A stretch of 64,000 nucleotides of DNA from Patescibacteria group bacterium (lineage in GTDB: Bacteria; Patescibacteriota; Microgenomatia; UBA1400; PJMF01), in contig JBDTME010000002.1 of assembly GCA_039934415.1 (NCBI GenBank), positions 14,351-78,350 on the forward strand, read 5' to 3'. Shown here one piece after another: positions 18,775-58,261 of this stretch; the stretch's first letter is position 1; each line of letters starts with the position of its first letter. Made by a program: the position numbers and the translations under genes. Under the pieces are notes generated by a model that saw only the letters and a program-made list of their open reading frames with translations, searched no databases and was not told the DNA's origin.

Positions 18775-19860
18775 ATGGAAACAAAATCACTGCTCAACAA
18801 GCGTATTCCTACAATTTTAGGGCTCATTGTCCTATTTGGTGCTTTGGGAGCTGGTGTTTTTTTCATTGGCGCAGGACCCGGCTTGTTTAGTCCGCGCGCA
18901 ACCCCTCAAACTACTCCGAAAAATGTCAAAATTACGAATATCACTGACACAACATTTACTGTTTCTTTTTTGACAGACGATTCCTCTGCTTCATTTGTTA
19001 AGTATGGGACTTCTGCAACCTCTCTCACCAACAGAGAAGGTGATGATCGTGATCAACTTGCCGGCAACGTTGGTACCTATAACACACACCACATTACTCT
19101 GCGTAATTTACAGTCGGGAACAAACTATTTCTTTACGATTGGCACGAGTTCCAATGGTCAATTTGATAACAATGGAAAACCTTACACAGTTAAAACCGTT
19201 CAAAAAGCGAGTAACCAATCTGCAGCTCAAACTATCTACGGCACAGTCTTAACGCAAGATTCCAATCCTGCAGACGGCAGTATTGTCTACGTGACAGTGG
19301 ATAAAGGGGCAGAAATGTCTGCATTAGTTCGGTCTTCAGGGACTTGGGCCATTCCTCTCTCTCAATTACGTGGTACTGATGGAGGCGTTCCGCCAGCAAT
19401 TACAACAAATACATTGATGCTCGTATTTGTACAAGGAAAAACCCCTCAAGATACTGCCACACTTACCACTACAGTAGGACAACCACAGTTTCCAGTCAAA
19501 ACTATTACATTGGGAGAGAATAACGCACCTGCAACGACAACAGCGCCAAGCACAGCTACTCAAGCACCTGCACAAGTTCAACCAACTTCTACTCCACAAT
19601 CTGGGACTAATGCTCAACCAGTTATCAGTGCATCTGGTTCGGCCAGTCCAACTATAAAAGTTTCAGTGACTATTAAACCAACAAGCACAACAGTTCCATC
19701 TAAGACACCAACGCCTACCACCGATACGGATATTACTATTCCTGCTACCAACGCACCAAAACCAATCTCTGGATCAGCAGAAGACACACTCGCTGTTTTC
19801 GTCGCTGGCCTTCTTCTGATATCATTTGGAGGTGTCTTGTATCTTTCAATTCGAAAGTGA
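18775..19860 (+). CDS. cell-surface protein with FN3-like domain and C-terminal PISGSA-TM-IRK sorting-signal-like tail
   Basis: 361 aa. N-terminal signal anchor. FN3/purple-acid-phosphatase-N-like block (TFTVSFLTDD...VKYG...HHITLRNLQSGTNYFF). Thr/Pro/Gln-rich linker. C-terminal motif, hydrophobic helix, basic end. Confidence 0.5.
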   Translation: METKSLLNKRIPTILGLIVLFGALGAGVFFIGAGPGLFSPRATPQTTPKNVKITNITDTTFTVSFLTDDSSASFVKYGTSATSLTNREGDDRDQLAGNVGTYNTHHITLRNLQSGTNYFFTIGTSSNGQFDNNGKPYTVKTVQKASNQSAAQTIYGTVLTQDSNPADGSIVYVTVDKGAEMSALVRSSGTWAIPLSQLRGTDGGVPPAITTNTLMLVFVQGKTPQDTATLTTTVGQPQFPVKTITLGENNAPATTTAPSTATQAPAQVQPTSTPQSGTNAQPVISASGSASPTIKVSVTIKPTSTTVPSKTPTPTTDTDITIPATNAPKPISGSAEDTLAVFVAGLLLISFGGVLYLSIRK

Positions 19861-19861
19861 T

Positions 19862-19897
19862 GAATTGATCGATACACTTTTTAAATCGATCAATTCA
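19862..19897 (+). terminator. perfect 11-bp inverted repeat immediately after the stop codon (hairpin; terminator or regulatory palindrome)
   Basis: AATTGATCGAT, 11-nt loop, ATCGATCAATT. T-rich loop but no downstream U-tract. Coordinates approximate to about 2 nt. Confidence 0.3.
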
Positions 19898-19940
19898 GGT
19901 AGAAACGCACATTCCTTACTGCAAAAATCACTAATTACCC

Positions 19941-21068
19941 ATGCCCACATCAACTCCGACCACTCCACCCGCTGCAGCACCACAGAACCCACCTGGAGGT
20001 TTTTTTATTCCCCAGAAAACAACGACAACAACAAACTTGAGTGAGTCACCAGTACTTTCAAGTCCAGCGATTAAAAACACTCCACCGGTAACACCAAATG
20101 TGGGACTCAAACCTTCGTCTTCAAGAAATAAAATACTGTTAGGGCTCTCGGTCGTAGTTGTTATATTAGTTTTGATTGGCGTCGGTGCTGGTCTCTATTT
20201 AACTCAAACAAACGTAGACAATCGGCAACAAGCCTCAACGTCCTCTGGCTCAGCAAAACTGACAGTTTCACCTGACTCTGGTACTTTCAAAGGAAACACT
20301 GAGCAACAAGTTAATTTTAGCCTAGACCTTACTTCGACTCCGATCACGCTATCAGATATCGAACTGTCCATCAGTTTTGCTGGGAAAATTCCGAGTGATC
20401 TGCAGTTTTTTCCTCAGCAACTCCAAAACTTTCTGCCTGCTGATATATCTATTACTGATTCTGATACAGGTAAATTACTTATTATTAGTTTCAAACCAAG
20501 TGGTACTCAAGGATTTAGTGCCACATCAACGAATATCAGTTTAGGTGTGCTTAAATTTACTAGCCCAGATTCTGGCCAGCTGAATTTACGGTTCAACGCC
20601 AGTGATTCAAAAGTACTGCTGCAACAATCTAATCTCGATATCCTCAGACCACCCAGCCTCGTCAGTTACTCTTTTGAGTCTAGCCTCACGCCATCCACAC
20701 TCCTAGAAAATGACCTCACGAATCTAGCATCAAGTTCAGGAAATGAAGTCGCGACCAACAGCGCAACGCCAACTCAAAGTCCAACTCCAACACTATCTGG
20801 AATAGGTGGCGCTATTCCTACAAACACACCGACACTGCTCGCCCAAATAAATACAACTACGACGCCAACCAATACACCCACCAAGACGCCTAGTTTGACA
20901 CCTACGCCAACTGACGTTCGAGAAAGTTCATTACCCGCTAACACGCAAGACACCCCAGTTTCAGGCTCTGCTGGCCTCACCGTTACTCTATTCGGATCTG
21001 GACTCCTATTCATCCTCACAGGCTTCTATTTGATACCAAAGAAAAAGGCGCTTCGATCTGACCACTGA
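19941..21068 (+). CDS. cell-surface protein, Thr/Pro-rich, with NRQQA leader and C-terminal PVSGSA-TM-KKK tail
   Basis: 375 aa. Pro/Thr-rich N-terminus. TM followed by YLTQTNVDNRQQA, which resembles the leaders of the Cys-rich proteins at 48930 and 51971. PT-repeat linker near the C-terminus. C-terminal motif, TM and basic tail. Confidence 0.5.
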   Translation: MPTSTPTTPPAAAPQNPPGGFFIPQKTTTTTNLSESPVLSSPAIKNTPPVTPNVGLKPSSSRNKILLGLSVVVVILVLIGVGAGLYLTQTNVDNRQQASTSSGSAKLTVSPDSGTFKGNTEQQVNFSLDLTSTPITLSDIELSISFAGKIPSDLQFFPQQLQNFLPADISITDSDTGKLLIISFKPSGTQGFSATSTNISLGVLKFTSPDSGQLNLRFNASDSKVLLQQSNLDILRPPSLVSYSFESSLTPSTLLENDLTNLASSSGNEVATNSATPTQSPTPTLSGIGGAIPTNTPTLLAQINTTTTPTNTPTKTPSLTPTPTDVRESSLPANTQDTPVSGSAGLTVTLFGSGLLFILTGFYLIPKKKALRSDH

Positions 21069-21075
21069 CAAGTAT

Positions 21076-21729
21076 GTGTCTGCTGGTTACAATGTCGGCA
21101 TGTTGGCTGTTGAAATCTCACCGTATTTTTTTTCGCGAGAGAAACGCATATTTGACATACTTGTATCTATTTTTTTACTCGCCTTACTTGTTCCACTCTT
21201 TCTCATCATTTCAATCCTGATTATTTTTACTTCAGGGTTTCCCATTTTCTTTATTCAAGACAGAATCGGTAGAGATAAGAAACGTTTTAAAATAATTAAA
21301 TTTCGCACCATGTACCCTCATGCTCACAAAGATCAAAAAAAGTATTGGAAGCTCAATGAGTCTCCTTTTCCAGCCTTCAAACTCGCCGATGACCCTCGGT
21401 TCGTTGGCATTGGGAAATGGCTATCCAAAACGGGCTTGGATGAGCTTCCTCAGCTCATTAACATCCTTCGAGGTGAAATGAGTCTCATCGGTCCACGACC
21501 ACTTCCTCCTCTAGAAGCAAAAAAAATGACAGGAAGTTGGGATTTTCGGTATAAAGTCAGACCAGGAGTTATCTCTTTATGGGCATTATCAGATAAAAGA
21601 CACAAGTCACTGAAGCATTGGCAAAGACTGGAGATACAAACATTGAAAAAAGCCAATCTGCTTAAAGATTTTCTGATTATTTTTCAATCTATAAAAGTGC
21701 CGTTAAAAAATGGACGAAATCATTATTGA
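21076..21729 (+). CDS. polyprenyl-phosphate sugar-1-phosphate transferase (bacterial sugar transferase family, WbaP/PglC-like initiating enzyme)
   Basis: 217 aa with an N-terminal TM. Conserved blocks KFRTM and LDELPQLINILRGEMSLIGPRP are typical of PF02397. Confidence 0.8.
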   Translation: MSAGYNVGMLAVEISPYFFSREKRIFDILVSIFLLALLVPLFLIISILIIFTSGFPIFFIQDRIGRDKKRFKIIKFRTMYPHAHKDQKKYWKLNESPFPAFKLADDPRFVGIGKWLSKTGLDELPQLINILRGEMSLIGPRPLPPLEAKKMTGSWDFRYKVRPGVISLWALSDKRHKSLKHWQRLEIQTLKKANLLKDFLIIFQSIKVPLKNGRNHY

Positions 21730-24641
21730 AAGACTTGCTGCCAAGTTTTTTCACCTTTTATAATTTCACCGACTTTTTTAAATCTATCTTTATCACTATA
21801 CCCTTGATGGAGACAATCTTGATGAGATCCTGGGAATTCTGAAACACATTTACTGTATTCAACTTCCATCTCAGCTTTGTCACCAACAGATAAGAAGTAA
21901 TTGCCAAGTTGTTGGGTGATCCAAAAATCGTTTGGTTTCAAAACATTCATAAACCTTAAAATCATCACTGTTTCCTCAGGATTATTCTTTTGCAACGACT
22001 CTTCAGCCTGGGTCTCTAATTGCCGAATAAATAAATCTAAGCTTGTGTTGTCAGACAATTTAAAAAATTCCGCTAAAGCTAAATATTTTTTTACGCCCTC
22101 CAAGTTTCCTTGCTCATACAAATGGAGACATAAATAAAGTAAAAGTTGATAACTTTTTGCTTTTCTACCTTCATTAATTTTAGGGTAATAATTTTCAAAT
22201 GAGTCAAAATACTTTTGTGCATCCTCAGATTTTATTGATTCAACTGACTCAACATCTAAAAAATGGCCAGTTTTGCTGTTAAAAATCCAGGGATTGATAC
22301 TCAGGGCAGTTTTATAATTTTCAAGTAAGTAATCAAAGTCAATATGTACAGTTTCATTTCCAACCTGAATTAAAGAGCTGGCAAGCATCACCTGATATTT
22401 GTCATCAATATATCCCGCTTTTTTGAGCATCAATTGCCTCGTGTCACTCCAAATCGCTAGCGATTTTTTTGCGCTATCTAAATCCTTATTCGTTTTTGAA
22501 ACATTCATTTTTTCTTGAATCATCCGAGAAATATCAGGCCAAATCAGATGTGCTGTGCCAGGCGAAATGTCTATTGCTCGGTGAAGGCTTAAACTGGTTT
22601 TCTCAAATTCATTCTGATCAAACTGCCATTTAGCAAGCTCCCAATATTTTTGAGCGTATACCCTATTTTGGATTCCAAAATTGTCGGCAGGTATTTGATT
22701 AAGTTGAGTTAAAAATTGCTCTAGTTCCAAACCAGTAACATGCTGCAACTTATACTCATGATCTTGGATACTGAAATGTACTAGTGCATGAGAAAGTACA
22801 TATAACTTTCCTGCAAGCTCAGCTTGCCCTGACAGTAAAAGCTCATCTGCAAAATAGAGTGTTTTATTGGCTAATATCTTTTTTTGTTCAAAAGTAAGAT
22901 TCTGACCATGTGTATTTTTCTCGGCAAATATAACGAACTGTGCCAAGTTAAACACAGTGTCCTGATTCAAACCCATCTTTTTAAAATCTCTCAAGTCTTG
23001 TGTCGAAAAAAAGACAAGCTTCCACGGATCTAAAATGAATAAAGTATTGTTATCTTGGATACTATTTACTGCTGTTCCTACGTCATCAGTGAGAACATAC
23101 GTTTCACTATCGCTTCGATATATCTGTTGGAAAAATGTCGTTTGTTCAGGAGTTAATGATTGACTCGTCAAAAAAGCTTTTCTTTGATAAAAATAATACG
23201 GAAAAATTTGAAATGCAGTGGAAAATTTCCTTTGTGAAAGCAGGCTCTCATTGAGTAAAAATAGGATGCTGTATGCAAAAATAAATATACACGTTATGGT
23301 TGAAATCATGAGTAACCCATGTTTAAGATGAATATCATTCATTTTTTTACTTTGTGTATTACGAGTACCTCTCAAGATAATCGCAATCAGAATGACAACT
23401 ACTAAAAAGAGTGCGGAAAATGACCAGCTAAAATCAAAAAAACTATCAATAGAAGTTGAAAGTAGTGCAACTAACAAAAACGATTGTTCGCTAAATGGCT
23501 GAAGATTTCTTCTGGCATGACTCAAGACAACGAGGAAAATACTGACAAAAAGCAAAATGAAAAAAACGCCGGTAAAAATCCCTGATTCACTAAAAACTTG
23601 TAAAAACGAATTATGCGAGAACGTCGTGAACGCATATGAAGTGGCTCTATATTTACTTGAGATCAGTTGAAAAGTTCCTGGTCCATACCCAGTTAATGGA
23701 TAATTTTTAACACCTTGAAATGCTTCCCTCCAATATTCTGAGCGTAGATCTTTGTCAAGATTCTTGCACAACTTATTTTGCAAAGAAGGAAACGGACATA
23801 CAAATGAAGGTTGAATAATTTGAACAACAGAAAAAAACAATTTAAACGCTATTATCCCTATAAATAAAATTCCCAGGAAAAAAAGTGTGATTCTGTCAAA
23901 ACTGGTTTGTAATTTAATTACACTGGCCCTTTTATTGAAAGAGTGAAGAAAAATAAAGACGTATGATAATTGAAAGAATCCAATGAGAATTGCTACTCGT
24001 GCAAAAGTCGTTAGCAGTAATAGATTGAAAAACACATATAGATACAGGAATTTGTGTTTTTCAAATTTATCAAAATATTTTTTTTCTTCTCGATTTTGTG
24101 GTATTTTTTTAAAATTTAACAAAAAAATAATTGGATTAATCAGTATAATATAAGAGGCAATATGATTATGACCATATGTTTCATATATAAAATTCATGCC
24201 TGGTAAGTGAATTGCCCATTCTAGGTTGAGACGGACCAAAGTACTGATCACAAAAAGCACTCCCCCTATAAGTATCAAAATTAAAAAAAGAAATGATTTA
24301 TTTAAAAAGTTGGACGAAACAAGTAGAAAAAAAACAAAGACAATAAAATAAATACCAGAGAAAAAAATGGATTGCAGACTGAGTGGGAGATTATGGGTGA
24401 AAAAAGCTGAGACACACAAAAAAAATAAGTACAATAGCCACACAGAAATGACAAAAATGTTTGATTGATATTTAAGTTGATTCCAATCTAGTTCCCGCAC
24501 AAAAAAACAAACAAGTACTATAAACGCTCCCCCAGTTACTATTCCCAAGTAGGTCTCTCCCAAAAGAAATTGACACAAAAGAAGAATACTAAAAAAGAAT
24601 AAGAAAAAAAGATCTTTAATTCCAATCAACTTTGAGACCAT
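21723..24641 (-). CDS. O-antigen ligase/Wzy_C-family polytopic membrane protein fused to large C-terminal TPR-like domain
   Basis: 972 aa, at least 12 TM helices. Wzy_C signature SHNSFLQVFSESGIFTG. A C-terminal soluble region of about 500 aa is rich in helical repeats. Confidence 0.6.
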   Translation of the reverse strand: MVSKLIGIKDLFFLFFFSILLLCQFLLGETYLGIVTGGAFIVLVCFFVRELDWNQLKYQSNIFVISVWLLYLFFLCVSAFFTHNLPLSLQSIFFSGIYFIVFVFFLLVSSNFLNKSFLFLILILIGGVLFVISTLVRLNLEWAIHLPGMNFIYETYGHNHIASYIILINPIIFLLNFKKIPQNREEKKYFDKFEKHKFLYLYVFFNLLLLTTFARVAILIGFFQLSYVFIFLHSFNKRASVIKLQTSFDRITLFFLGILFIGIIAFKLFFSVVQIIQPSFVCPFPSLQNKLCKNLDKDLRSEYWREAFQGVKNYPLTGYGPGTFQLISSKYRATSYAFTTFSHNSFLQVFSESGIFTGVFFILLFVSIFLVVLSHARRNLQPFSEQSFLLVALLSTSIDSFFDFSWSFSALFLVVVILIAIILRGTRNTQSKKMNDIHLKHGLLMISTITCIFIFAYSILFLLNESLLSQRKFSTAFQIFPYYFYQRKAFLTSQSLTPEQTTFFQQIYRSDSETYVLTDDVGTAVNSIQDNNTLFILDPWKLVFFSTQDLRDFKKMGLNQDTVFNLAQFVIFAEKNTHGQNLTFEQKKILANKTLYFADELLLSGQAELAGKLYVLSHALVHFSIQDHEYKLQHVTGLELEQFLTQLNQIPADNFGIQNRVYAQKYWELAKWQFDQNEFEKTSLSLHRAIDISPGTAHLIWPDISRMIQEKMNVSKTNKDLDSAKKSLAIWSDTRQLMLKKAGYIDDKYQVMLASSLIQVGNETVHIDFDYLLENYKTALSINPWIFNSKTGHFLDVESVESIKSEDAQKYFDSFENYYPKINEGRKAKSYQLLLYLCLHLYEQGNLEGVKKYLALAEFFKLSDNTSLDLFIRQLETQAEESLQKNNPEETVMILRFMNVLKPNDFWITQQLGNYFLSVGDKAEMEVEYSKCVSEFPGSHQDCLHQGYSDKDRFKKVGEIIKGEKTWQQVFQ

Positions 24642-24642
24642 A

Positions 24643-25362
24643 TCATGATTTTTGAGCTAGAATGATAACGCTCGAGCCAAATGGCAAATTAACATGTTTT
24701 AAGGCCCAAGCTTCAAACTTCATTATTTTTTTCAGGATTGCATTCAAAACTGAAGGAACTTTGTCGACATAATTCTCACTTTGTATCTGCTTTTTAACCA
24801 ATCGATGTAGTATGAAAAGAGGAAAAACAAAGCAAAAAATATTCGACGATCGCAATACTTTGAATCCAGATAATTTTATTAACTCTTCTAACTCCTTTTT
24901 TCGAAATCTTTTTTTTGCTTCCATTGCCTCATCATGCTTACTCCATAACCAAGGACAAATACAGTCAGTAACAATGATATATCCCTTATGCTTTAACACT
25001 CGATGAGCTTCTGACAGAGCTTTTATTTCATCTACTTGCTTATGATAGAGCACGTCGCAAAAGGCAACTAGATCAAAATTAGTGTCTTGCAATGGCAGGA
25101 CGTTGGCCGAACCTTTTATTGCTGTTATTTTCCTTCTTAATAGTTTTTCGTAAGCTAACTGATTTTTTTCTACGGCAGTGACTTTACCCCATTCTGAAAA
25201 GAGAGTAGTTATTCCACCTGTTCCTGCGCCAACATCCACAATTTTTTTTCTACCATCACCTAAAAACTGAGTAATGAAAACTCGAATGAAATTTCTTTTT
25301 GAAATAAACCACCAATGGTGATCTTCTAAATCAGCCATTTGAGTGTACTCATTTTTTTTCAT
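24643..25362 (-). CDS. class I SAM-dependent methyltransferase
   Basis: Motif I VDVGAGTGG; 239 aa; lies within the glycan locus. Confidence 0.7.
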   Translation of the reverse strand: MKKNEYTQMADLEDHHWWFISKRNFIRVFITQFLGDGRKKIVDVGAGTGGITTLFSEWGKVTAVEKNQLAYEKLLRRKITAIKGSANVLPLQDTNFDLVAFCDVLYHKQVDEIKALSEAHRVLKHKGYIIVTDCICPWLWSKHDEAMEAKKRFRKKELEELIKLSGFKVLRSSNIFCFVFPLFILHRLVKKQIQSENYVDKVPSVLNAILKKIMKFEAWALKHVNLPFGSSVIILAQKS

Positions 25363-25440
25363 AACTAAAAAGTGCTTTATGGCGAATTAACGCATATAAT
25401 GTGCTGGCATTCCGTTCAAATTGAATATCTATCATAACTT

Positions 25441-25890
25441 ATGAAAATTTTAATTGTAACCTCATCTGGAGGGCACTTATTTAAGACTTTTCAACTTAAG
25501 CCATGGTGGTCAAAGTATGAAAGAGTTTGGGTTACCAAAAAAGACGAGTTTTCGGAGAGCATCTTAAATGGTGAGAAGATTATTCCCGGCAATTTTCCTG
25601 AACAAAGAAATATACTAAATTTTTTTAAAAATTTGTTCTTTGCTCTCAAATTACTCCGTACCGAAAAACCAGACCTCATCTTCTCGATGGGCGCTGGCAT
25701 TGCTCCACCGTTCTTTCTGGTTGCAAAACTATATAAAATTAAGACAGTCTTCATCGAAACATTTATCTCTATTAGTCAATCAACCATTTCAGGGAAAATG
25801 ATTTACCCACTTGCTGATCTCTTTTTAGTACAAAATAAAAAGCTGCTGCACGTCTATAAAAAAAGTCTATACTTGGGACCAATCCTGTGA
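25441..25890 (+). CDS. Alg14-like glycosyltransferase membrane-anchor subunit (PssD/Cps14F-like)
   Basis: 149 aa; N-terminal ILIVTSSGGH; overall Alg14-like layout; overlaps the downstream Alg13-like gene. Confidence 0.6.
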   Translation: MKILIVTSSGGHLFKTFQLKPWWSKYERVWVTKKDEFSESILNGEKIIPGNFPEQRNILNFFKNLFFALKLLRTEKPDLIFSMGAGIAPPFFLVAKLYKIKTVFIETFISISQSTISGKMIYPLADLFLVQNKKLLHVYKKSLYLGPIL

Positions 25891-42190: not shown

Positions 42191-42191
42191 A

Positions 42192-46623: not shown

Positions 46624-46755
46624 GGTCGCTACTATAGCAGGGAAATTTTAAATTTCTAAGGGTCTGTTTACTTTAGATTCATGACTTTTTTTTAGATCTA
46701 TTCTCACCCCAAATTGCTAATAGAAAAATATTAATGTTATACGTAGAATGGCCCT

Positions 46756-46974: not shown

Positions 46975-46983
46975 AAGGGCAGC

Positions 46984-48678: not shown

Positions 48679-48706
48679 GATCAAAAATACTAATTGAAAG
48701 ACAATT

Positions 48707-48850: not shown

Positions 48851-48929
48851 TGTTTTATGGAAAATAATCAGACCGAAAGAGGTCGCTGAGTTCAAGAAGT
48901 TTAGTATTCCGTATTGACTTCATACCCTC

Positions 48930-50495
48930 ATGGTTTGTATCCTGAATAGTAAGATATTACACACGCTACTCAATAAGCGAATTTCTATGTCAAACATTCC
49001 AGACCGCCTCACAGCTGCATTTAGCCAAGTTAAAAAAGATGTCAAAATGCTGACCAGTTCTCAAACATATTCCAAAATGTCACAGAACCAGATCATCGGC
49101 GGATTGACAATGCTGCTATTGACTGTGGGCGTAGCCGCTGGAGTATATCTCGGTCAGATCAGTCAAGAAAATAGACAACAAGCATTTGTTCCTTATGACA
49201 CTTGTGTAAGTGGTGACAGTAATTGTATAGGACATGGTGATGGTTTCGCCTGCAGCAGTAACGGTCGCTGTGCATTAAGCCAACTTACTGGAAGTTGTTC
49301 ATGTGACCAAACAAATCCAATACCAACTGGCACAATCAGTCTCGGTTGTAGTTCAGGGCAAGAGTTTTTAAATGAAAATACCTGTAATGCTATTTGTGGA
49401 GGAGGTTGTATCCAAGGTGGCATTGGGTATTGCTGTGTGGGTACAGGCCCGACTAGCACACCTGCTTTAGATAATGGCTGCGCTGCTAGTGGCGGTACTT
49501 GCAAAGGGACTTGCGGAGCTAGTGATACACAAACTGGCCTTTGTTCTGGTTCAAGCTCTGGACCAAAATGCTGTAAACCAGTATTACCAACAGCCACCCT
49601 TTTCTGTTGGGGCGCAGGAACGGCTTGCGGAAACTCAGGTGGTAGCGCATCTTGTTGCCCAGGGCTGTCCTGCACAATTGATACTTCCGACAATAATACC
49701 GCCAAGTGTACGGCCCCTGCTAATTGTGGAAATAATGTCTGCTCACAAGGTGAGAATTGTACTACCTGTCCAACTGATTGTGGTCTTTGTCCTCAACCGA
49801 CCAACACGCCTGTCCCAGTGAGTTCTTGCCCATCTGGTGAAACTTGTGTAGAAACAGCAGGTACTTGCGGAGGCATCGGCGGTTCTTTGACATCTAATCG
49901 TTGCGGATCAGGAAATTCACAGTTTTGTTGTTTAGTTATCGATTCATGTCCAAGTGGAGAAACTTGTGTCGAAAATGTTCAAGCTTGTGGCATCATCGGC
50001 GGAACGACTACAAGTAATAGGTGTGGCTCAGAACAAGATTCGAAAACATGTTGTAAGTTGAACTCTGGTCCATCGGCTGCACCTCGTCCAACCAACACAC
50101 CAGTTCCATTACCAACGAACACATCAGTGCCTGTCAGTCCAGGGCAACCAACAAATACGCCTGTTCCAAATCCAAACCCAACGAATACGTCAGTGCCTGT
50201 GGCAACAGACGTACTCGCCCCAGTCTGTGTGAATATCACAATGAACAATCCAGCATCACTGACACCTAATACTCCACCTAACACGGGTGACGTGGTGACC
50301 TTCACCTGTTCTCAAGTGGCTGGCGCAAGTCGATATGAGTTCCGCGTCAAGTTACCAGACAACTCATATGTCAACATCAACCCAAGTCTGGCAACACTCT
50401 ATGTGTCGCAGCAATACCAGATCCCTTCAGCTGGTACTTTCACAGCTGCTTGCCGACCATGTAACGCAAACGCCTGTTCAGCTTGGGAGAATTAA
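48930..50495 (+). CDS. secreted/anchored Cys-rich surface protein, paralog A (type-B leader; C-terminal RYEFR-WEN domain)
   Basis: 521 aa. TM then YLGQISQENRQQAF. A Cys-rich module about 90 percent identical to the one in 51971. Further Cys-rich repeats, a PTNT linker, and a conserved C-terminal domain ending ...CSAWEN-stop. The true start may be the internal MSNIPDRL. Confidence 0.6.
   Translation: MVCILNSKILHTLLNKRISMSNIPDRLTAAFSQVKKDVKMLTSSQTYSKMSQNQIIGGLTMLLLTVGVAAGVYLGQISQENRQQAFVPYDTCVSGDSNCIGHGDGFACSSNGRCALSQLTGSCSCDQTNPIPTGTISLGCSSGQEFLNENTCNAICGGGCIQGGIGYCCVGTGPTSTPALDNGCAASGGTCKGTCGASDTQTGLCSGSSSGPKCCKPVLPTATLFCWGAGTACGNSGGSASCCPGLSCTIDTSDNNTAKCTAPANCGNNVCSQGENCTTCPTDCGLCPQPTNTPVPVSSCPSGETCVETAGTCGGIGGSLTSNRCGSGNSQFCCLVIDSCPSGETCVENVQACGIIGGTTTSNRCGSEQDSKTCCKLNSGPSAAPRPTNTPVPLPTNTSVPVSPGQPTNTPVPNPNPTNTSVPVATDVLAPVCVNITMNNPASLTPNTPPNTGDVVTFTCSQVAGASRYEFRVKLPDNSYVNINPSLATLYVSQQYQIPSAGTFTAACRPCNANACSAWEN
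49174..49441 (+). repeat. dispersed direct repeat copy 1 (Cys-rich module DNA)
   Basis: About 270 bp; roughly 85-90 percent identical by eye to 52211-52478. Confidence 0.7.
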
Positions 50496-50509
50496 AATTA
50501 GACTTATTG

Positions 50510-50545
50510 GTAGGGGTTTCAGCAATTGGAATCCCTACTGTTTAA
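50510..50545 (+). terminator. hairpin after Cys-rich protein A gene (weak terminator candidate)
   Basis: GTAGGG, 17-nt loop, CCCTAC, followed by TGTTTAAT. Confidence 0.25.
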
Positions 50546-50606
50546 TAACTGACTCGTTATTTTGAATGAAAAATGCAACCACGATTGAACGAAAAAGTAA
50601 TATTTT

Positions 50607-51962
50607 ATGGATAGGAAACCTAACCTCCCCTTCCGGTGGAACTCTGTTTTAATCATAGGTCTCATTGTTTTAGTCGGAATTTTTGCAGTTGCCACAGCTC
50701 TTTTTCAGAGAAATCGTGGCCCTCTCGCTCCAAATGCACCTGGATCTCAACCAAAAGCTGATGTTGTCACTGAAGGATGCACGGTTCGCTTCTCCATTTC
50801 AGATGATGCTAATCTCACATGCACCAAAAGAGCATTTCTAGATGAGCTCGACAACATTGCAGGAACCTATCATTTAAGAAATGAAATTCAAAGCATAAAA
50901 GCTGGTGATATCGTCGTCTTCAATATAGATATCCAAAATAACAGCAGCACTGGAACGACTGTGAATTTAAATGATTTGTTTGCAGTGAGTCCCTCTGTTT
51001 CAAATGCCGTGGAATACATTGACTCAAATTGCCCAGGAGGCGGTACCTTTAATCAAAGTACACTCAATTTGACCTGCTCAAATAAATTTGTCGGCGGCGG
51101 TCAAAACCAACAACTCACTTTCCGAGTCAAAGTAAATGCCGCTGCCACAATAGGTACTCAGATCAGTAACACGGCTACAACTTCCGATGGAACAAGTACC
51201 GCAATTTGTACTAGGAGCATCATCGTTGCTGAAGCAACGACTCAAAAAGCCTGCAATCAAAGCTGCGAAACAAGTAAAGAATGTACTGGCACTTTAGAAT
51301 GTACGAATGTAAATGGTTTGTTTGTTTGTAGAGATCCACAAATTCCTAGCGATTCAACATGTGGTGCACCGACTGCCACCCCAACCTTTACTCTAGTCCC
51401 CAGTTCTACGTCTACTTCAACACCAACACGTACGCCGACCAGTACTCCTACTCCTACTCATACTCCAACGGCTACATTCACTTTAGTGCCTACGGCGACG
51501 AGTACTCGAACACCAACTCCAACATTTACTAATACGCCAACTAACACTCCTACAAGAACTCCGAGCCCAACGGCTACTTACACACCGTCGCCTACTTTCA
51601 CTGCACTGCCAACAAGCACAGGCACGGTTACACCAACGGCCACGTTCACTATTACTTTGACACCATCTGCTACGGCTACAACAAGAGTTCTCGCTCAATG
51701 TAACCAGGGTTGCAGTACTAATGCTGATTGTGCCAACTCTAATCAAATTTGTTACACCACGAATGATGGAAATCGTTGTCGTCTCGCAGATAACGTCGGC
51801 AGCGACAATTGCTCGACCACCATCGCTTCGGGTGCAACGTCGACTCCATTCATTCCTCAGTTACCAAAATCTGGTAGTGAAAACCAACGAGTGTTGCTCA
51901 TAGGTGGGGTCATCCTAGTTGTGATCATCATCGGAATTGTGGGCTTCTTACTCATTTTGTAA
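50607..51962 (+). CDS. surface protein with type-A leader ([11 protein letters not shown]), PT-repeat linker, Cys-rich C-terminal module and LPKSG-TM C-terminus
   Basis: 451 aa. TM then [29 protein letters not shown]. Thr/Pro tandem repeats. C-terminal [33 protein letters not shown]-stop. Confidence 0.6.
51365..51690 (+). repeat. imperfect tandem ACN-CCN (Thr-Pro) coding repeat tract
   Basis: Encodes TPTxT/TPTFT repeats inside the 50607 gene. Confidence 0.6.
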
Positions 51963-51970
51963 AAGATTTT

Positions 51971-53548
51971 ATGAGTGATCAAAATTTACCACCACAATCA
52001 AATAATGGCCTGGATGAAATCCTGAAAGAGTTGGAACAACGCTTTGGCATTAATACTGACCAATCGGAAAACCAATCCGACTCCAAAAAAAATAGTGGTG
52101 TTAATTTTAAACGATACGGCAAAAACCAAATTATTGGTGGATTAACACTGGTACTCTTGGTTGTTGGTGCAGTTGCCGGTATATACCTTGGTCAAACAAA
52201 TCAAGAGAACAGACAACAAGCATTTAATCCTTATGACACTTGCGTAAGTGGTGATGGTAATTGTTTAGGACATGGTGATGGTTTTGCCTGTAGTAGCAAT
52301 GGTCGTTGTTCACTGAGTCAGCTCAATGGGAGCTGTTCCTGTGACCAAACAAATCCGATACCAACTAGCACCATTAGTCTCGGTTGTAGTTCGGGGCAAG
52401 AGTTTTTAAATGAAAGTACTTGTAATGCCATTTGTGGTGGCGGATGTATCCAGGCTGGCATTGGGTATTGCTGTGTCGGAAGTGGTTCTAACCCAACCAA
52501 TACTCCGAGTAGTCCAGGCATCACTAACACCCCCAAACCCACCAACACTTCTGTCCCCACTACTCCTGGAGCTCCGACAAATACACCCGTCCCAGTGTCG
52601 ACAACCCAACCACCTGCAAGTACACCTGGCAATCCAGTCAACACACCTGTCCCCGTCCCTGCCACTGCCACACCGCCTACTTCGTGCGGAAATAGTATCG
52701 TGAATACTGGAGAACAATGTGATGACGGAAATTCAAACAATAATGATTATTGTTTGAATAACTGCACATTGAGTTCTTACTGTAAATTTTATGATTTAGA
52801 GGGTTTACCCATTGGAGAAATGCAACCGCTAGGAAGTCCCTACTCAGCAGATGGCATACAATTTTCTAGCAACGGTCAATATTGGGTTGGGAACTATGCC
52901 AGTGTCTTAATTGACCCAGCAGGTGGAGCTGCCTCACCGGTGCACGGTATCTGCGTAAATAACTGTGCTCAAGGGGCATTCGATATATTCTTTAATCCAC
53001 CGGTCGATTTCTTTGGCATAGTTGTGTTTAGTGGACCGAGTTTAGATCCAGTAACATCAACAACAGGACTTACATATTATTACGGCACGAGTAGTAGCCA
53101 GTATGTTAGTAATACTGAGACAGCATACACGCGACATACTATTTCACAAACTGGCATCAATCGCGTCAATTTAACATCATCAAATTCTTATGAAGGTTGG
53201 GATGATATAGTCATTTGTAGATTTCCAACACCAACAAGTACACCGACTACCGCAATTGGCCCTACGTGTAATGGAATCAAAGTTTCATACGGAAACAGCA
53301 ACGAACCAACCAGACCTGTTCGGATTGGTGATAACTTAACGTTCACTTGTGGCACCTTAAGCAGTGCAGCTCGCTATGAATTTAGACTGTTCTTAAACGG
53401 AGTTTTCTTGCAAAACATCAATCCAATTTCCACATCGGCTAGTATTTCGCAACCATTTCCTATTGCACAAAGCGGGAACTATAGTGCACAATGTAGGATG
53501 TGTACTGATAGTACAGCTACAAGTTGTCAATCTTGGGAACCACTATGA
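51971..53548 (+). CDS. secreted/anchored Cys-rich surface protein, paralog B (type-B leader; C-terminal RYEFR-WE domain)
   Basis: 525 aa. TM then YLGQTNQENRQQAF. Cys-rich module near-identical to paralog A. PTNT linker, then a central beta-rich region. C-terminal ...ARYEFRLF...CQSWEPL-stop. Confidence 0.6.
   Translation: MSDQNLPPQSNNGLDEILKELEQRFGINTDQSENQSDSKKNSGVNFKRYGKNQIIGGLTLVLLVVGAVAGIYLGQTNQENRQQAFNPYDTCVSGDGNCLGHGDGFACSSNGRCSLSQLNGSCSCDQTNPIPTSTISLGCSSGQEFLNESTCNAICGGGCIQAGIGYCCVGSGSNPTNTPSSPGITNTPKPTNTSVPTTPGAPTNTPVPVSTTQPPASTPGNPVNTPVPVPATATPPTSCGNSIVNTGEQCDDGNSNNNDYCLNNCTLSSYCKFYDLEGLPIGEMQPLGSPYSADGIQFSSNGQYWVGNYASVLIDPAGGAASPVHGICVNNCAQGAFDIFFNPPVDFFGIVVFSGPSLDPVTSTTGLTYYYGTSSSQYVSNTETAYTRHTISQTGINRVNLTSSNSYEGWDDIVICRFPTPTSTPTTAIGPTCNGIKVSYGNSNEPTRPVRIGDNLTFTCGTLSSAARYEFRLFLNGVFLQNINPISTSASISQPFPIAQSGNYSAQCRMCTDSTATSCQSWEPL
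52211..52478 (+). repeat. dispersed direct repeat copy 2 (Cys-rich module DNA)
   Basis: Matches 49174-49441. Confidence 0.7.
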
Positions 53549-55503
53549 AACAAAAATACCCCATCCTTTCATCACAATTCGTTGATTCGGTGTTCACACC
53601 GCTGTCACTCGTTCTAATTAGTATTGTTGCCATCATTGCTGTGGCAGTGGCTTTGTTCCAAGTGAATAAAGGTCCAGTAGCTCCTAATGCTCCTGGGTCA
53701 CAACCAAAAGCAGCCGACTTTACAGGACAAACTTGTGCCCTCACATTTGTCGTTGCTGGACCATCAGCAACACCAGCTCCTCAGGTCATTGATTTAGAAT
53801 TACAAAAGACCGCAGATAAGTCAGCAGTAAATGTCGGTCAACAAATCACCTTCACAGTTTCACTTTTCAACCGAGGACCTGCAGATGCAACAAATGTCCG
53901 AGTTCAGGATATTTTGCCAACCGGGTTGCAGTACGTTTTAGATACTAGCAGCGGTGCATACAACTCGACGAGTGGCGTTTGGAGCATTGCTAGTTTAGCT
54001 GCGAATCAAACTGTCAGTCTCAATATTACGGCAACAGTAACTCAATCTGGTTCTTTAACTAACTACACTCAAGTTTCAGCTGCAGATCAAACCGATGTGG
54101 ACTCCACTCCAGGAGATAATTCTGGAACTGGCACAGTTGCACATCAAGACGATGACAGCGCAGTTGTGATCAATTCAACAGCCAACACTAGTGACCTTGA
54201 ATTAACCAAACGTGCTAACACTACAACTCCTTCAGTCGGAGGCTCAGTAGTATTCACTATTGATGTTGTGAACAAAGGCCCACAGAACGCAACCGGTGTC
54301 AAAGTAGCCGACTTACTCCCAACTGGATTGAGCTATCTGTCTCACTCCACTGCAACCGGCAACTTTAACTCTACTTCAGGTATCTGGGATATCGGGAATT
54401 TAGCAACAGGTTCAACTGTGAGTTTGACATTGACTGCACAAGTCAACACCACCTCACCTGTAACAAATTACTCTCAGATCACAGCCAGTTCCCCAACGGA
54501 TTCAGATTCAACACCTGGAAATAACTCAGGAAACGGAACAGTGCCACACGAAGATGATGATGACTCGGTCGTACTGACCCCTCAGTCAACACCTACGAAC
54601 ACACCTCCGGCAGTAAGTGCTGATCTATCACTGACCAAACAAATCAGTAATAGTACACCAAAAGTCGGAGAGAACATCACATACACTGTTACGGTCTACA
54701 ATGCCGGACCAAATGACGCAACCAACGTAACAGTCAGTGAGCCACTCGTAGGAGGAACAACATTCGTCTCTGCTACACCGTCTCAAGGTACTTACAATGT
54801 ATCGGCAGGCCTTTGGACAATTGGCACCATTCCTGTCAACCAAAGCAGAACCTTGCAGATCGTCGTGACTGTCAATGTCTCGACCAGCATAACCAACACT
54901 GCACAAGTTCAGCACAGTGACCAACCTGATCCAGACTCTACACCGGGCAATAACAACCCAAATGAAGATGATCAACAGTCAGCTACAACAAACCCTGTTG
55001 CACAAGGCGCTGATCTATCACTCAACAAACGAGTCAATGTGACCAGACCAGTCGTTGGACAGAATGCAATCTTCACAGTTGAAGTGCATAATGCAGGACC
55101 TCTGCAAGCAGATAATGTGACCGTCAAAGACTTGGTCCCATCAGGCACCACCTTTATTGATGCTCAACCTTCTCAAGGTAGCTACAATTCAGGAAACGGT
55201 ATCTGGACGATCGGTTCGATCACAAAAGATTCTACGGTAAGCATACAATTAACGCTGAGAGTTGATACCAACTCACAGATCGTAAACGTGGCAGAAGTAG
55301 CATCAAGCAGTCAACCTGACCCTGACTCTACACCAAACAATAACAATCCAAACGAGGATGACCAAGATGATGCAGTTCTAAATCCTCAGACAGCAGCAGC
55401 TTTACCAAAGTCGGGAAATGCTTCAAACACCACCCTCTTTGTCATAGCAACTGGAGTCATAGTATTGATCATCGGAGCCATGGGACTGCTACTCCTTCTG
55501 TAA
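53545..55503 (+). CDS. DUF11-repeat surface protein with type-A leader and LPKSG-TM C-terminus
   Basis: The ATG overlaps the upstream TGA (ATGA); ORF-track start 53524 is a TTG. TM then [28 protein letters not shown]. Five DUF11-like repeats (LTKxxS...VxNxGPxxATxVxVxDxLPxGxxF). DSTPGNN spacers. C-terminal LPKSGNASNTTLFVIATGVIVLIIGAMGLLLLL-stop. Confidence 0.7.
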   Translation: MKQKYPILSSQFVDSVFTPLSLVLISIVAIIAVAVALFQVNKGPVAPNAPGSQPKAADFTGQTCALTFVVAGPSATPAPQVIDLELQKTADKSAVNVGQQITFTVSLFNRGPADATNVRVQDILPTGLQYVLDTSSGAYNSTSGVWSIASLAANQTVSLNITATVTQSGSLTNYTQVSAADQTDVDSTPGDNSGTGTVAHQDDDSAVVINSTANTSDLELTKRANTTTPSVGGSVVFTIDVVNKGPQNATGVKVADLLPTGLSYLSHSTATGNFNSTSGIWDIGNLATGSTVSLTLTAQVNTTSPVTNYSQITASSPTDSDSTPGNNSGNGTVPHEDDDDSVVLTPQSTPTNTPPAVSADLSLTKQISNSTPKVGENITYTVTVYNAGPNDATNVTVSEPLVGGTTFVSATPSQGTYNVSAGLWTIGTIPVNQSRTLQIVVTVNVSTSITNTAQVQHSDQPDPDSTPGNNNPNEDDQQSATTNPVAQGADLSLNKRVNVTRPVVGQNAIFTVEVHNAGPLQADNVTVKDLVPSGTTFIDAQPSQGSYNSGNGIWTIGSITKDSTVSIQLTLRVDTNSQIVNVAEVASSSQPDPDSTPNNNNPNEDDQDDAVLNPQTAAALPKSGNASNTTLFVIATGVIVLIIGAMGLLLLL

Positions 55504-55535
55504 AAGTAGAAAGAGTTCGTTTAAAACGTAAAAAG

Positions 55536-55569
55536 AAAAGAGGTCTTATTCATTAAGGCCTCTTTTTTT
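55536..55569 (+). terminator. rho-independent terminator after DUF11 surface-protein gene
   Basis: AAAAGAGG, 15-nt loop, CCTCTTTT, then a T7 run. Confidence 0.5.
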
Positions 55570-55659
55570 CAAGAAGAAAGTGAGCATAAAAGTTAGGTGA
55601 AAAAGTAAACAGGATAGAAAGTTAAGTACTTTTTATAAAATTTTTAGAATATAAACGAG

Positions 55660-56535
55660 ATGCAAGAAAGTTTTACTCCTCCGACACAAACTGAACCACA
55701 AGTTTCAAGAGTATCCAAAGTAAAAATGGTTTTGCCTATTTTAGGAGTGGTGGTGGTTGCAGTTGCTGCCGTAGCAGTGAGTTTATTTTTATCACAAAAG
55801 CAGGAACCAGTTGCACCAAATGTCCCCGCCTCACAGCCAAAAGCCTCGGAGATCGTTAATGATATTACTTGTACTTTGAACTTTGAGGTACTCGCACCGA
55901 CTCCGACGCCCACCTTTACTGCAACCTTGACGCCAAGCAATACACCTACTGCTACCCCTACTTTTACGCCAACGAGAACGCCGACCGCCACGCCTACTTT
56001 TACCCCTACACCTATTCCTCCAACGAGTACTCCTACTCGAACACCAACACCAACTGCTACAGCCACTCCGACTGCTACACCAACGAGAACACCAACACCG
56101 ATTCCACCGACCAGTACTCCGACAAATACGCCGACATCGACACCAACATCGACACCAACTGCCACTCCGACTAGAACACCAACGATCACGTTAACACCGT
56201 CAGCAACTGCTACTTACACTCCATCAGCGACTCCAACCTCACCAATTGCCGCTACTTGTAACTCTATTAAGATGATCTATGGCGTTGGGGAGCCAGACAG
56301 AGCACCAAAACTCTCTGACAATGTTCAGTTCCAATGTGGAACAATTGCAGGTGCATCTCGATATGAGTTTAGAATTCTGGCTCCTGCACCGAACAATACC
56401 TACCAACCTTGGCCAGCTATCTCTGGAGGAACATTATCTCAACCATATACCATCGCTGCGTATGGTTCGTACAGCGCGCAATGTCGAGCTTGTGCCGGAG
56501 TTGATGCTTCAAGCTGTCAGCCATGGGAAAACTAA
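55660..56535 (+). CDS. surface protein with type-A leader, long PT-repeat linker and C-terminal RYEFR-WEN domain
   Basis: 291 aa. TM then [31 protein letters not shown]. About 110 aa of TPTxT repeats. C-terminal ...[10 protein letters not shown]...CQPWEN-stop. Confidence 0.55.
55893..56245 (+). repeat. imperfect tandem ACN-CCN (Thr-Pro) coding repeat tract
   Basis: Encodes PTxTPT repeats. Its reverse complement yields the spurious GV-repeat ORF 55644-56189. Confidence 0.6.
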
Positions 56536-56611
56536 CGACTACATTGATCTTCACCAGATTGTTTTTTTAAGAAAAATTCTCTACACTTAAAAGTGGAATC
56601 AATTAATATAC

Positions 56612-58261
56612 ATGCTTACTTTATCCAGTCTCTGGCGGTCGAAGCGTTCAGTGATGGCAGTGCTTGCCATCGTAGTTGTGGCTGTAGCAGCTGTAGGTAT
56701 TTCACTTTTTCAACGTTTTTCGCAAGGAACCCTCGCTCCCAACGCTCCACAGTCTCGACCAGCGGCTTCAGAAGTAAACTCAAATACCTGCACATTAAGT
56801 TTTTCAGTTGAACCACCCGCTGCTCCGTGTATCGCATTGACAAAAGTTGCTAGCCCCATCTGTTTGCCAAATGGTTCACCTGGCGCCCAAATTACTCTCG
56901 GAACGAACGCGACTTGTCCTCCTCAACCAGGAACTCGTAAACCAGTTGATGTCATGATCGTGATGGATAACTCAACTTCTCTATCTGCCGATAAATTTTG
57001 GGGTCCGATTAAAACTGCAACTGCTAATAGTGTGATGAATTTCGATCCAGCTGTAGACAGAGTTGGTTTAGTAACTTTTAATCGCAGTGCGACACTTCGC
57101 TCTGGTTTGACGAATAATCTTAGTTCAGTTCAATCAATTGTTGATAATTTGTCCGTTCCAGCCAGTGGATCAGCGACCAATATCGGTAATGGATTAGAAA
57201 TAGCAAAAAATACACTGGCGAGCACTGCCCGACCAGAAGCAGTCAAAGTAGTTATCTTATTCACAGATGGCCAGGCAAATGCAGATTCCACACTCACGAT
57301 CTGCGATACCTTTGATCTGAACTGGAACTCATGCAAACAGCACGCTCAAACTCAAGCAACGCTTATTAAGAGTGCTGGAAGCACCTTGTATGCTGTTGGA
57401 TTTAATACGGTGAGTGAAACACAGCATCCAGGCTCAACTGCGATGTTGCATGATTTACTTTTACAAATGGCCTCTTCGAGTAACACGTATTACACCTCAA
57501 ACAACTCCACTGAACTCGCTGCTGCATTTGCTCACATTGCAGATACTATTACCGATACTTTGGCAAATAGCGCAGTGATCACAGATATTCTTCCTCCGGG
57601 AATTTCGCTCGTTTCCGGAAGCGCCATCCCTGCTTTTACAACTCAAAGTGGCCAAACGCTCACTTGGAATCTGGGTACAGTTGGAGTTGATCAACAAACC
57701 ACAGTGACATTTCAAGTTGCTTTACCCAACTTCTCAGCCAACCAACTCGTTGACGTCTATCCCGACTCCGAAATCAACTACACTGACCACTTAGGCAATC
57801 CTATTACATTGTCTTTCCCTGAAACTCGAGTTTCACCGAATACTTGTGCGACACCAACTGCTATTCCTTCACCTACTTCTAATCCAACTAACACACCAAC
57901 AAGTAGTCCAACGCCGACTTTCACGGCCACCCCAACTAACACCAGGACGCCTACACCAACTTTTACAGCAACTCCGACGAACACGCCAACAAATACTCCA
58001 ACGCCTACCAATACTGCAACCAATACGCCAACACGCACCCCAACACCGACGGCTACTGCCACAGCGACGAGTACTCCTTCACATACACCTACGCTGACTG
58101 CAACCAATACAGCAACTCAAACACCAACATCGACATTCACGCCTACTCCAACCCCACCAGGACTGCCGAAAGCTGGCACTACAGGACCAACATTCATGAT
58201 TCTAGGAATCGGCGTTGCAGCAATCGCCTTCGGACTGCTGGGAATCTTGTTACTCTTCTAG
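56612..58261 (+). CDS. von Willebrand factor A-domain surface protein with type-A leader and LPKAG-TM C-terminus
   Basis: 549 aa. TM then [28 protein letters not shown]. vWA blocks [12 protein letters not shown] (MIDAS DxSxS), [17 protein letters not shown]-repeat linker. C-terminal [32 protein letters not shown]-stop. Confidence 0.7.
57850..58160 (+). repeat. imperfect tandem ACN-CCN (Thr-Pro) coding repeat tract
   Basis: Encodes PTNTPT repeats. Reverse strand gives the spurious ORFs 57778-58107 and 57846-58097. Confidence 0.6.

Follow-up and report, generated by a model that had tools for sequence, protein, structure and literature searches.

Five exported proteins of a Patescibacteria gene cluster bear putative LPXTG-class sorting signals, three of them without a charged tail

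Can a bacterial surface protein carry a sorting signal for a sortase if its chain stops exactly where the C-terminal membrane helix stops? This question is raised by a 64-kb stretch of DNA (64,000 nucleotides, here called the window) from a Patescibacteria group bacterium (contig JBDTME010000002.1 of assembly GCA_039934415.1, positions 14,351 to 78,350). Five open reading frames (ORFs) in the window end in a short motif followed by a hydrophobic segment (Table 1). In three of them (Class I), LPK(S/A)G is followed by a helix that runs to the last residue, and in the other two (Class II), xP(I/V)SG is followed by a helix and a short tail. We consider it likely that all five are exported surface proteins and substrates of a sortase, with a tail-less or variant signal of the LPXTG class, and on the best reading the tail-less form is typical of Microgenomates-like Patescibacteria.

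The three Class I proteins share one layout, in which LPK(S/A)G is followed by 4 or 5 polar residues, 23 or 24 uncharged hydrophobic residues, and the stop codon. The pentapeptides LPKSG, LPKSG, and LPKAG lie 33, 33, and 32 residues from the C terminus. In the 451-amino-acid (aa) protein, the motif is followed by SENQR and a 23-residue helix; in the 659-aa protein, by NASN and the 24-residue helix TTLFVIATGVIVLIIGAMGLLLLL; and in the 549-aa VWA protein, by TTGP and a 23-residue helix. Translation confirmed what the sequence-only reading had reported for these three ends, including the absence of an Arg/Lys tail. A recoded UGA was considered as a cause of the missing tails and excluded: the genes stop at TAA, TAA, and TAG, respectively, and the window, which is 94% coding under the standard genetic code, commonly uses TAA, TAG, and TGA, so these termini are not recoding artefacts. 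A six-frame regular-expression scan of the window recovered five anchor motifs, all in the five named ORFs, with no further match.

The tail-less end was retained in related loci. The C terminus of the homologues of the 451-aa protein reads QLP[K/R][A/S]G-SENQ[R/K]-helix, with no residue after the helix. Conservation of the LPKxG position, on which the sequence-only reading had made its proposal depend, was found in the orthologues P0001-P0009, which kept LP[K/R/A][A/S]G together with the tail-less helix. Orthologues of the 659-aa protein in loci L002, L004, and L005 are near-identical at this end, LP[K/R][A/S]GN[A/T]S[N/R]TTLFVIATGVIVLIIGAMGLLLLL, and relatives of the VWA protein in the same loci have LPKAG, LPPAG, LPRAG, or IPRAG before a tail-less helix. 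Throughout L002-L009, orthologues and paralogues combined LP[K/R/A/E/P/S][A/S]G with such a helix, and further paralogues bore LPKAG, LPRAG, LPRSG, LPPAG, LPSAG, LPAAG, LPEAG, IPRAG, LPETG, or QPVTG; these paralogues were tail-less, bar one with a single terminal Lys. Over the related loci collected first we counted 38 distinct tail-less LPx[T/S/A]G signals, and the only genuine tailed signals there belonged to the fn3-type protein and its neighbour, the two Class II proteins.

More remote relatives were collected with a profile built on alignment A2, which covers the C-terminal ~90 residues (a small Cys-knot, LPxxG, and the helix). Searched against 1.84 billion cluster representatives, it retrieved 402 clusters at E<=1e-3, 206 of them at E<=1e-10. 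Among the best 146 of the 402 clusters, xPxxG preceded the helix in 142, with Leu at position 1 in 134, Pro and Gly in 142 each, and Thr, Ser, or Ala at position 4 in 73, 42, and 26 (141 in total). The commonest pentapeptides were LPQTG (35), LPETG (22), LPQSG (19), LPVAG (13), and LPESG (10). The hydrophobic stretch formed the very C terminus in 139 of the 142, a charged residue anywhere in the last 14 aa occurred in only 2 of the 146, and LLL made up the last three residues in 93 of these best clusters. From the motif Gly to the C terminus, the 142 motif-bearing representatives measured 24 to 37 aa (median, 25), and the usual form of the family is LPxTG-PxDWxNWLK-AGLxxLGxGAxLLLLL-COOH. Because the consensus of this large family is a literal LPXTG, the LPK(S/A)G of the window is, to judge from these relatives, a lineage variant of it. 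The Class I pentapeptide had been called non-canonical, a label that does not suit the wider family, in which canonical LPQTG or LPETG prevails.

The curated models were then compared with these ends. TIGR01167 (LPXTG_anchor; cutoff, 15.9 bits) was the sole C-terminal anchor or sorting model to reach its cutoff, with 19.9 bits for the 451-aa protein and 11.1 and 10.9 bits for the other two Class I termini; PF00746 gave 17.8 bits, under its 20-bit cutoff. When an artificial RRKKEN tail was appended to the Class I ends, the TIGR01167 scores rose to 26.1, 25.3, and 18.6 bits, all above the cutoff, thereby indicating that the missing tail largely explains the failure of the model. Two of the three proteins fall under the curated cutoff because no residue follows the hydrophobic segment. 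Typical relatives scored 13.6 to 13.8 bits, also under the cutoff; the curated LPXTG model misses most members of the tail-less family, since a tail is part of what it looks for, and NCBIfam has no model dedicated to this family. The other anchor-type matches on native tails (EF0750_LPXTG and LPXTG_double) were far under their cutoffs, and no PEP-, PGF-, GlyGly-, or other CTERM model of NCBIfam matched the native C termini at E<=10. PEF-CTERM, GG_III-CTERM, Loki-CTERM, and Heimdall-CTERM appeared only with the artificial basic tail, as weak matches below cutoff.

The Class II proteins end in KPISG, SAED, a membrane helix, and the tail RK (fn3-type protein) and in TPVSG, a membrane helix, and the tail PKKKALRSDH (neighbour). 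TIGR01167 gave 14.2 bits for the former and no match for the latter, and the pentapeptide of neither was matched. Among the best 120 homologues of the fn3-type protein, xPx[S/A/T]G preceded the helix in 117, with V, I, L, K, Q, or M at position 1; PVSG was found in 81 and PISG in 12, and the family variants include PRSG, PKSG, PKAG, PRAG, PAAG, and PQTG. Orthologues of the neighbour in L007, L041, and L042 kept [Q/K]PVSGS, the helix, and a polar tail. The sequence-only reading had described a signal of P(I/V)SGSA, helix, and basic tail. Its motif and helix proved real, but the basic tail is not conserved: the tail of the fn3 homologues has a median length of 8 aa and a net charge that is negative in 75, neutral in 18, and positive in 24. 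Since the motif is kept and the tail is mostly acidic, Class II is better called an LPXTG-like xPxSG signal with a variable polar tail, and the basic tails of the two window proteins look like lineage noise. The same reading had counted two separate non-canonical signals. LPKAG, LPRSG, and LPQTG, however, all occur at the Class II motif position, and by their sequences both classes fall within one LPXTG-type degeneracy, [L/I/V]-P-x-[T/S/A]-G.

The passenger parts of the Class I proteins were also informative. From N to C terminus, the 451-aa protein consists of a membrane helix, a conserved N-terminal motif described below, a CLIPPER-like beta-sandwich, and Cys-knots with a Thr/Pro linker. In its AlphaFold model (mean predicted local distance difference test score [pLDDT], 60; folded parts, 75 to 87), the N-terminal helix is followed by a disordered conserved segment, the beta-sandwich (residues 70 to 207), a Cys-knot, the disordered Thr/Pro linker, a second Cys-knot, a disordered segment with LPKSG, and a helix at 425 to 450. 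The top PDB fold match of the sandwich was a CLIPPER domain (9IFR; E, 5e-7), and Ig-like domains of PrgB and AspA and the pilins CppA and EbpC were further matches. The two Cys-knot modules (nucleotides [nt] 51252-51330 and 51699-51815) have the pattern CNxxCxxNxDC....IC......NRCRL......C. The module directly precedes LPxxG and is the part of the profile that retrieved the 402 clusters, and it gave only faint WAP matches in Pfam. The 659-aa protein has four CLIPPER/DUF11 stretches after its N-terminal helix and motif, and the 549-aa protein combines an N-terminal helix and motif with a VWA domain and a later Thr/Pro linker. CLIPPER/DUF11 is a CnaA-like isopeptide domain of fibrillar adhesins (PMC12617251), and the RrgB_K2N_iso_D2 model was above its cutoff in the relative P0263. 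CLIPPER/DUF11 and VWA domains and Thr/Pro linkers are the passenger types expected on sortase-anchored adhesins.

At the other end, each of the proteins carries a single N-terminal hydrophobic helix; as many as about 60 residues stand before it, and a conserved motif comes after it. The type 1 motif reads (G)P[V/L]AP[N/T]APxSxPxA and is followed by C-x-[L/V]-x-F; the type 2 motif reads YL[G/T]Q..Q[D/E]xRQQA. The three Class I proteins have type 1, and the 19941 protein carries the type 2 sequence NVDNRQQA in addition to a long N-terminal region and a membrane helix. Among 124 remote tail-less LPXTG proteins with a scorable N terminus, a loose R-x-x-A expression, which includes type 2, matched 70, and a P-x-AP expression, corresponding to type 1, matched 40. 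No NCBIfam or Pfam model matches either motif. The motifs, which loosely resemble the YSIRK signal peptides of LPXTG proteins, may serve in leader cleavage or sorting.

One partner gene lies 5' of each LPK(S/A)G gene, a pairing that recurs in L002, L004, L005, and L007-L009. The partner proteins have an export helix, no LPxxG, and a conserved ~95-aa end with four cysteines (RYEFR...AQCRxC...C..WE). Partner 1 has its N-terminal helix followed by the type 2 sequence SQENRQQA and ends in the form RYEFR...CRxC...C..WEN. The C-terminal 60 residues of partner 3 are those of P0012 (ABI425_02965, a hypothetical protein); the same stretch of P0077 also agrees with its ORF in the window, and P0121 and P0390 have window proteins with 100% identity to them. 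The AlphaFold model of the four-Cys domain of partner 2 (pLDDT, 72.5) is a six-strand Ig-like sandwich, for which a PDB fold search returned no match at E <= 0.001. Each partner could bind the anchored protein encoded next to it, or it could be a wall- or glycan-binding module.

Table 1. Coordinates in the window of the genes and motifs discussed (nt, nucleotide positions)
Feature	Coordinates	Strand	Basis and remarks
PilN-like and PilO-like genes and a 148-aa membrane protein	16920..18652	+	Pfam PilN E 4.6e-12, PilO E 5e-8
fn3-type protein (Pur_ac_phosph_N/fn3), Class II	18775..19860	+	Pfam; directly 3' of pilN/pilO-like genes; KPISG at nt 19759-19773
Neighbour protein, 375 aa, Class II	19941..21068	+	Orthologues in L007, L041, L042; TPVSG at nt 20952-20966
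Partner protein 1, Cys-rich	48987..50495	+	Paired with downstream LPKSG gene in L002, L004, L005, L007-L009; C-terminal ~95-aa Ig-like four-Cys domain; start probably ATG 48987 (MSNIPDR... in orthologues), listed ATG 48930
Surface protein, 451 aa, Class I	50607..51962	+	TIGR01167 16.7 bits for the whole protein; orthologues P0001-P0009; LPKSG at nt 51861-51875; stop TAA
Partner protein 2	51971..53548	+	NQENRQQA at nt 52199-52222; C-terminal Ig-like four-Cys domain
Surface protein with four DUF11/CLIPPER repeats, 659 aa, Class I	53545..55503	+	Pfam DUF11 (CLIPPER) E 1.9e-127, four stretches; LPKSG at nt 55402-55416; listed start TTG 53524, orthologues point to ATG 53545 (MKQKYP...); stop TAA
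Partner protein 3, 291 aa	55660..56535	+	Type 1 N terminus at nt 55804-55845; C-terminal Ig-like four-Cys domain
VWA-domain surface protein, 549 aa, Class I	56612..58261	+	Pfam VWA E 4.6e-21; LPKAG at nt 58163-58177; stop TAG
VirD4/TrwB-like coupling-protein ATPase	58832..61165	-	Pfam TrwB_AAD_bind, DUF87, TraG-D_C
Type 1 motif	50718-50759, 53671-53712, 55804-55845, 56726-56767	+	Sequence
Type 2 motif	49161-49184, 52199-52222, 20211-20234	+	Sequence

The signals lie at a fixed distance from the C terminus, on unrelated passenger domains, in hundreds of Patescibacteria protein clusters, and it is this conservation that makes the motifs resemble sorting signals. From the motif, its placement, and its conservation, which were observed directly, we infer a pathway of the sortase type. 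The N-terminal hydrophobic segment would direct export through Sec, and the precursor would be held in the membrane by its C-terminal helix. A sortase encoded elsewhere in the genome would then cleave between the fourth residue (T, S, or A) and Gly and pass the protein to lipid II or peptidoglycan, or possibly to another acceptor in the envelope. MurJ, a part of the peptidoglycan machinery, is encoded in the window, and we count it in favour of this pathway.

Several observations weigh against a sortase. The charged tail is needed for retention in Staphylococcus aureus, and Class I has none. A positively charged tail also belongs to the textbook definition of the sorting signal (PMC4155245). 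The spacer and helix of the tail-less family (PxDWxNWLK-AGLxxLGxGAxLLLLL) are unusually conserved, and so is the Class II helix with its flanks (GG.FF...G.WS[F/Y]W in the fn3 homologues); such conservation would fit a helix that stays in the mature protein or a different membrane enzyme that reads it. The N termini resemble signal anchors with long cytoplasmic leaders, and their -3 residues are atypical, so a signal peptide may or may not be cleaved. Finally, neither the window nor 67 related loci (about 0.93 Mb in all, including 31 loci of GTDB genomes and 25 of metagenomes) yielded a sortase; these loci were searched with a TLxTC expression and with phmmer (queries, S. aureus SrtA and SrtB). 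The one weak match was a UDP-galactopyranose-mutase-like ORF.

The statement of the sequence-only reading that the window holds no recognisable sortase, exosortase, or rhombosortase was borne out. The six-frame scan gave no TLxTC-type motif in a plausible ORF, and no sortase, exosortase, or rhomboid was among the Pfam matches of 28 ORFs, a set that took in the large membrane proteins and the majority of the ORFs with no evident function. These matches were MurJ, PilN, PilO, Bac_transf, two Wzy_C, PMT_2, GDSL, GT8, the VirD4/TrwB-like ATPase, and DUF192; the polytopic membrane proteins among those scanned were MurJ, the two Wzy_C proteins, and PMT_2. All-against-all clustering of the ORFs of the related loci yielded no recurrent unknown membrane enzyme, and the recurrent neighbours were ABC transporters, a YknX-like adaptor, the VirD4-like ATPase, and housekeeping genes. 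Any sortase of the genome is thus unlinked to its putative substrates. Since roughly one sortase is expected per ~1-Mb genome, this result indicates absence of linkage and not of the gene. The positive evidence for a sortase comes solely from the literature: the family occurs in more than half of the genomes of the candidate phyla radiation (CPR) and is near ubiquitous in Microgenomates (PMC6744442), and a complete, closed Microgenomates genome encodes one (PMC7143001).

Three other explanations were weighed. The proteins might be permanent type I membrane anchors in which Pro-x-[S/T/A]-Gly is an uncleaved structural motif or hinge next to the membrane. The lack of a sortase in the window and the related loci, the tail-less Class I ends, and the failure of TIGR01167 to match either Class II pentapeptide agree with this idea. 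It may be most plausible for the two Class II proteins, whose helix and flanks are conserved across 120 homologues and whose genes always stand beside pilN/pilO, so that they could be fixed membrane components together with the adjoining PilN/PilO-like proteins. The degeneracy of the pentapeptide, however, is exactly that of sortase substrates, with mostly literal LPQTG or LPETG in the wider Class I family, and a motif on many unrelated passengers at a fixed C-terminal distance is the pattern of a sorting signal and not of a structural hinge. We therefore hold permanent anchoring to be unlikely, although it deserves consideration. Distinctly less probable than not, and in our view improbable, is a non-sortase membrane protease or transpeptidase specific to Patescibacteria that docks on the glycine-rich, Leu-terminated helix and that may link its product to a lipid, an S-layer, or a glycan instead of peptidoglycan. 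The whole module of spacer, helix, -LLL-COOH, and fixed length is conserved in the manner of exosortase and archaeosortase CTERM domains, two dedicated N-terminal motifs accompany the signal, a glycan-assembly island (Wzy_C, PMT_2) sits inside the gene cluster, and no sortase is linked to the genes in ~0.93 Mb. Yet no conserved candidate enzyme recurs beside the substrates, a literal LPXTG is most simply explained by a sortase, and sortases are reported to be common in the group (PMC6744442).

Chance was the remaining explanation: the motifs are short, and nothing else speaks for fortuitous matches in hydrophobic C termini or for artefacts of ORF calling. The sequence-only reading had left room for such coincidental motifs. 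They are kept, however, in orthologues, in paralogues, and in hundreds of remote clusters, the tail-less genes stop at TAA or TAG, and the six-frame scan finds the pattern solely in these ORFs. With 38 tail-less signals in the loci and conservation in 142 of 146 clusters and 117 of 120 fn3 homologues, coincidence is refuted for practical purposes and its probability is negligible. Substrates of an unlinked sortase thus remain the reading that we prefer for the five proteins.

Comparison with known systems places the signals more exactly. They share with the Gram-positive LPXTG signal (TIGR01167/PF00746; sortase A/E-type) an [L]Px[T/S/A]G motif 24 to 37 residues from the C terminus, a membrane-spanning segment after it, an N-terminal export segment, and adhesin-type passengers (CLIPPER/DUF11, VWA, and Thr/Pro stalks). 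Unlike it, Class I has no residue after the helix (139 of 142) and so lacks the charged tail; position 4 in the window lineage is S or A and not T; the spacer and helix of the relatives are much more conserved than classical ones; position 1 of Class II is K, T, Q, V, or I, with a tail that is mostly acidic in the family; and the genes have no linked sortase. But for the missing tail, the anatomy of Class I, as read from its sequence, is that of a sortase sorting signal. The sortase-assembled pilus and adhesin islands of Firmicutes and Actinobacteria (RrgA/B/C and SpaA/B/C) likewise consist of a tandem block of LPXTG-type genes for a VWA protein and Ig-like proteins of the isopeptide type (CnaA/CLIPPER). 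They differ in having a class C sortase, which is absent from the cluster and its relatives, whereas each LPxxG gene here is paired with one for a secreted four-Cys Ig-like partner. In the only conserved candidate for such a lysine near the N terminus, the K of SQPKA, relatives have Q, A, S, or E. Pilin-type polymerisation was ruled out, as there is neither a conserved pilin lysine nor a class C sortase.

Like the CTERM regions of exosortase, archaeosortase, and rhombosortase substrates (PEP, PGF, and GlyGly), the tail-less signal conserves signature, single helix, and C terminus as one module on many passengers of one lineage. In those systems, however, the signature abuts the helix and an Arg/Lys tail follows, whereas here an LPXTG-like motif and a spacer precede a helix with no tail; no hidden Markov model of that kind matches the native ends, and no cognate enzyme is encoded in the window. 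The LPXTG mating adhesins of Gram-positive type IV secretion systems (PrgB of pCF10) offer another parallel, since genes for LPXTG-type Ig adhesins stand beside a VirD4-like gene and PrgB Ig domains were among the fold matches. They differ in that no PrgB polymer-adhesin domain was found and neither virB4 nor virB6 is present in the window, and the link is positional only.

The signals are spread over two gene blocks that are split by an island of low GC content at about 21076 to 48678 (31 to 37% GC, against 40 to 44% in the flanks). In L007, the order is LepA, S20, MurJ, PilN, PilO, a small membrane protein, the fn3 protein (QPVSG), and the 19941-like protein (QPVSG), followed by pairs of partner and LPxxG genes and by the VirD4-like ATPase at the end of the cluster. 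To judge from this gene order, both blocks of the window are one conserved cluster. The island is inserted 3' of the 19941-like gene in the window, L041, and L042 and is not present at that site in L007. It contains a Bac_transf priming transferase, many glycosyltransferases, two Wzy_C proteins of the O-antigen-ligase or O-oligosaccharyltransferase kind, a protein-mannosyltransferase-like PMT_2, an ABC-2 exporter whose permease was identified from orthologue annotations only, three GDSL-like paralogues, and a carbamoyltransferase-like protein, named after its L042 orthologue only. The long Thr/Pro linkers of the adjoining surface proteins are plausible targets of O-glycosylation. Elsewhere in the window, two large ORFs at 1196-6230 resembled penicillin-binding proteins by eye only.

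The PilN/PilO-like block lies directly 5' of both xPxSG genes, in the same order in L007, L041, and L042. A block of murJ, pilN, pilO, one further gene, and the fn3 gene is kept in L007, L029, L041, and L042, and because of this conservation the widely conserved fn3 protein may be a component of a type IV pilus alignment complex. No pilM, pilB, or pilC was found in the window.

The VirD4-like ATPase is 70 to 83% identical to ORFs in L007, L013, L018, L021-L023, L025, L026, and L028. In many distant Patescibacteria loci, this gene and one for a small conserved protein (61187-61747 in the window, minus strand) stand a few kilobases 3' of tail-less LPXTG genes. In distant relatives (L008, L009, L011, L013, L017-L023, L025-L029, and L035), the tail-less LPXTG gene is followed by genes for a YknX-like membrane-fusion protein, a MacB-type ABC ATPase and permease, and a small membrane protein; the window contains no such set. 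A published survey (PMC12102498) put the orphan VirD4-like genes of Patescibacteria in the thousands and found no PrgB-like adhesins in the phylum. The LPXTG-type Ig-domain proteins beside the VirD4-like gene could be these missing adhesins.

The related loci are titled Pacebacteria, Woesebacteria, Microgenomates, Paceibacterota, or 'Patescibacteria group'. Many GTDB/ENA records with typical Patescibacteria genes (L010, L012, L014-L018, L025-L028, and L033-L038) bear the title 'uncultured Pseudomonadales bacterium', and one assembly so titled, GCA_964583795.1, is syntenic with the window. These titles look like a systematic labelling error in the submissions concerned.

Our search of the literature turned up no paper that describes tail-less LPXTG signals, or any substrates of sortases, in CPR. 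The LPXTG sorting signal is well known as an element, and what is new, as far as we checked, is the tail-less form whose helix runs to the C terminus, its prevalence in the group, and its invisibility to the curated model. A bolder proposal, which we regard as rather unlikely, is that Microgenomates-like Patescibacteria possess a dedicated two-ended system for sorting surface proteins, in which one of two N-terminal motifs is combined with the tail-less C-terminal LPXTG module. With the same small degree of confidence, hundreds of adhesin families would carry Q-x-x-Q-D-x-R-Q-Q-A or P-V-A-P-N/T-A-P-x-S-x-P-x-A. No less speculatively, the reader of their glycine-rich -LLL-COOH module would be either a sortase that needs no charge retention or an enzyme not yet described. 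The products may be glycosylated adhesins for attachment to host cells, coupled in gene position to the orphan VirD4-like ATPase.

Patescibacteria make up a large and mostly uncultured share of bacterial diversity, and their adhesins and routes of surface display are almost unknown. According to PMC11623550, all cultivated members live attached to other microbes. The tail-less LPXTG-type signal marks at least several hundred protein clusters in the phylum and makes it easy to compile candidate surface adhesins from CPR genomes. It also lends itself to testing whether retention by a charged tail is a universal rule for sortase substrates. In a phylum without PrgB-like adhesins, according to the survey cited above (PMC12102498), it points to candidate adhesins encoded beside an orphan VirD4-like coupling protein.

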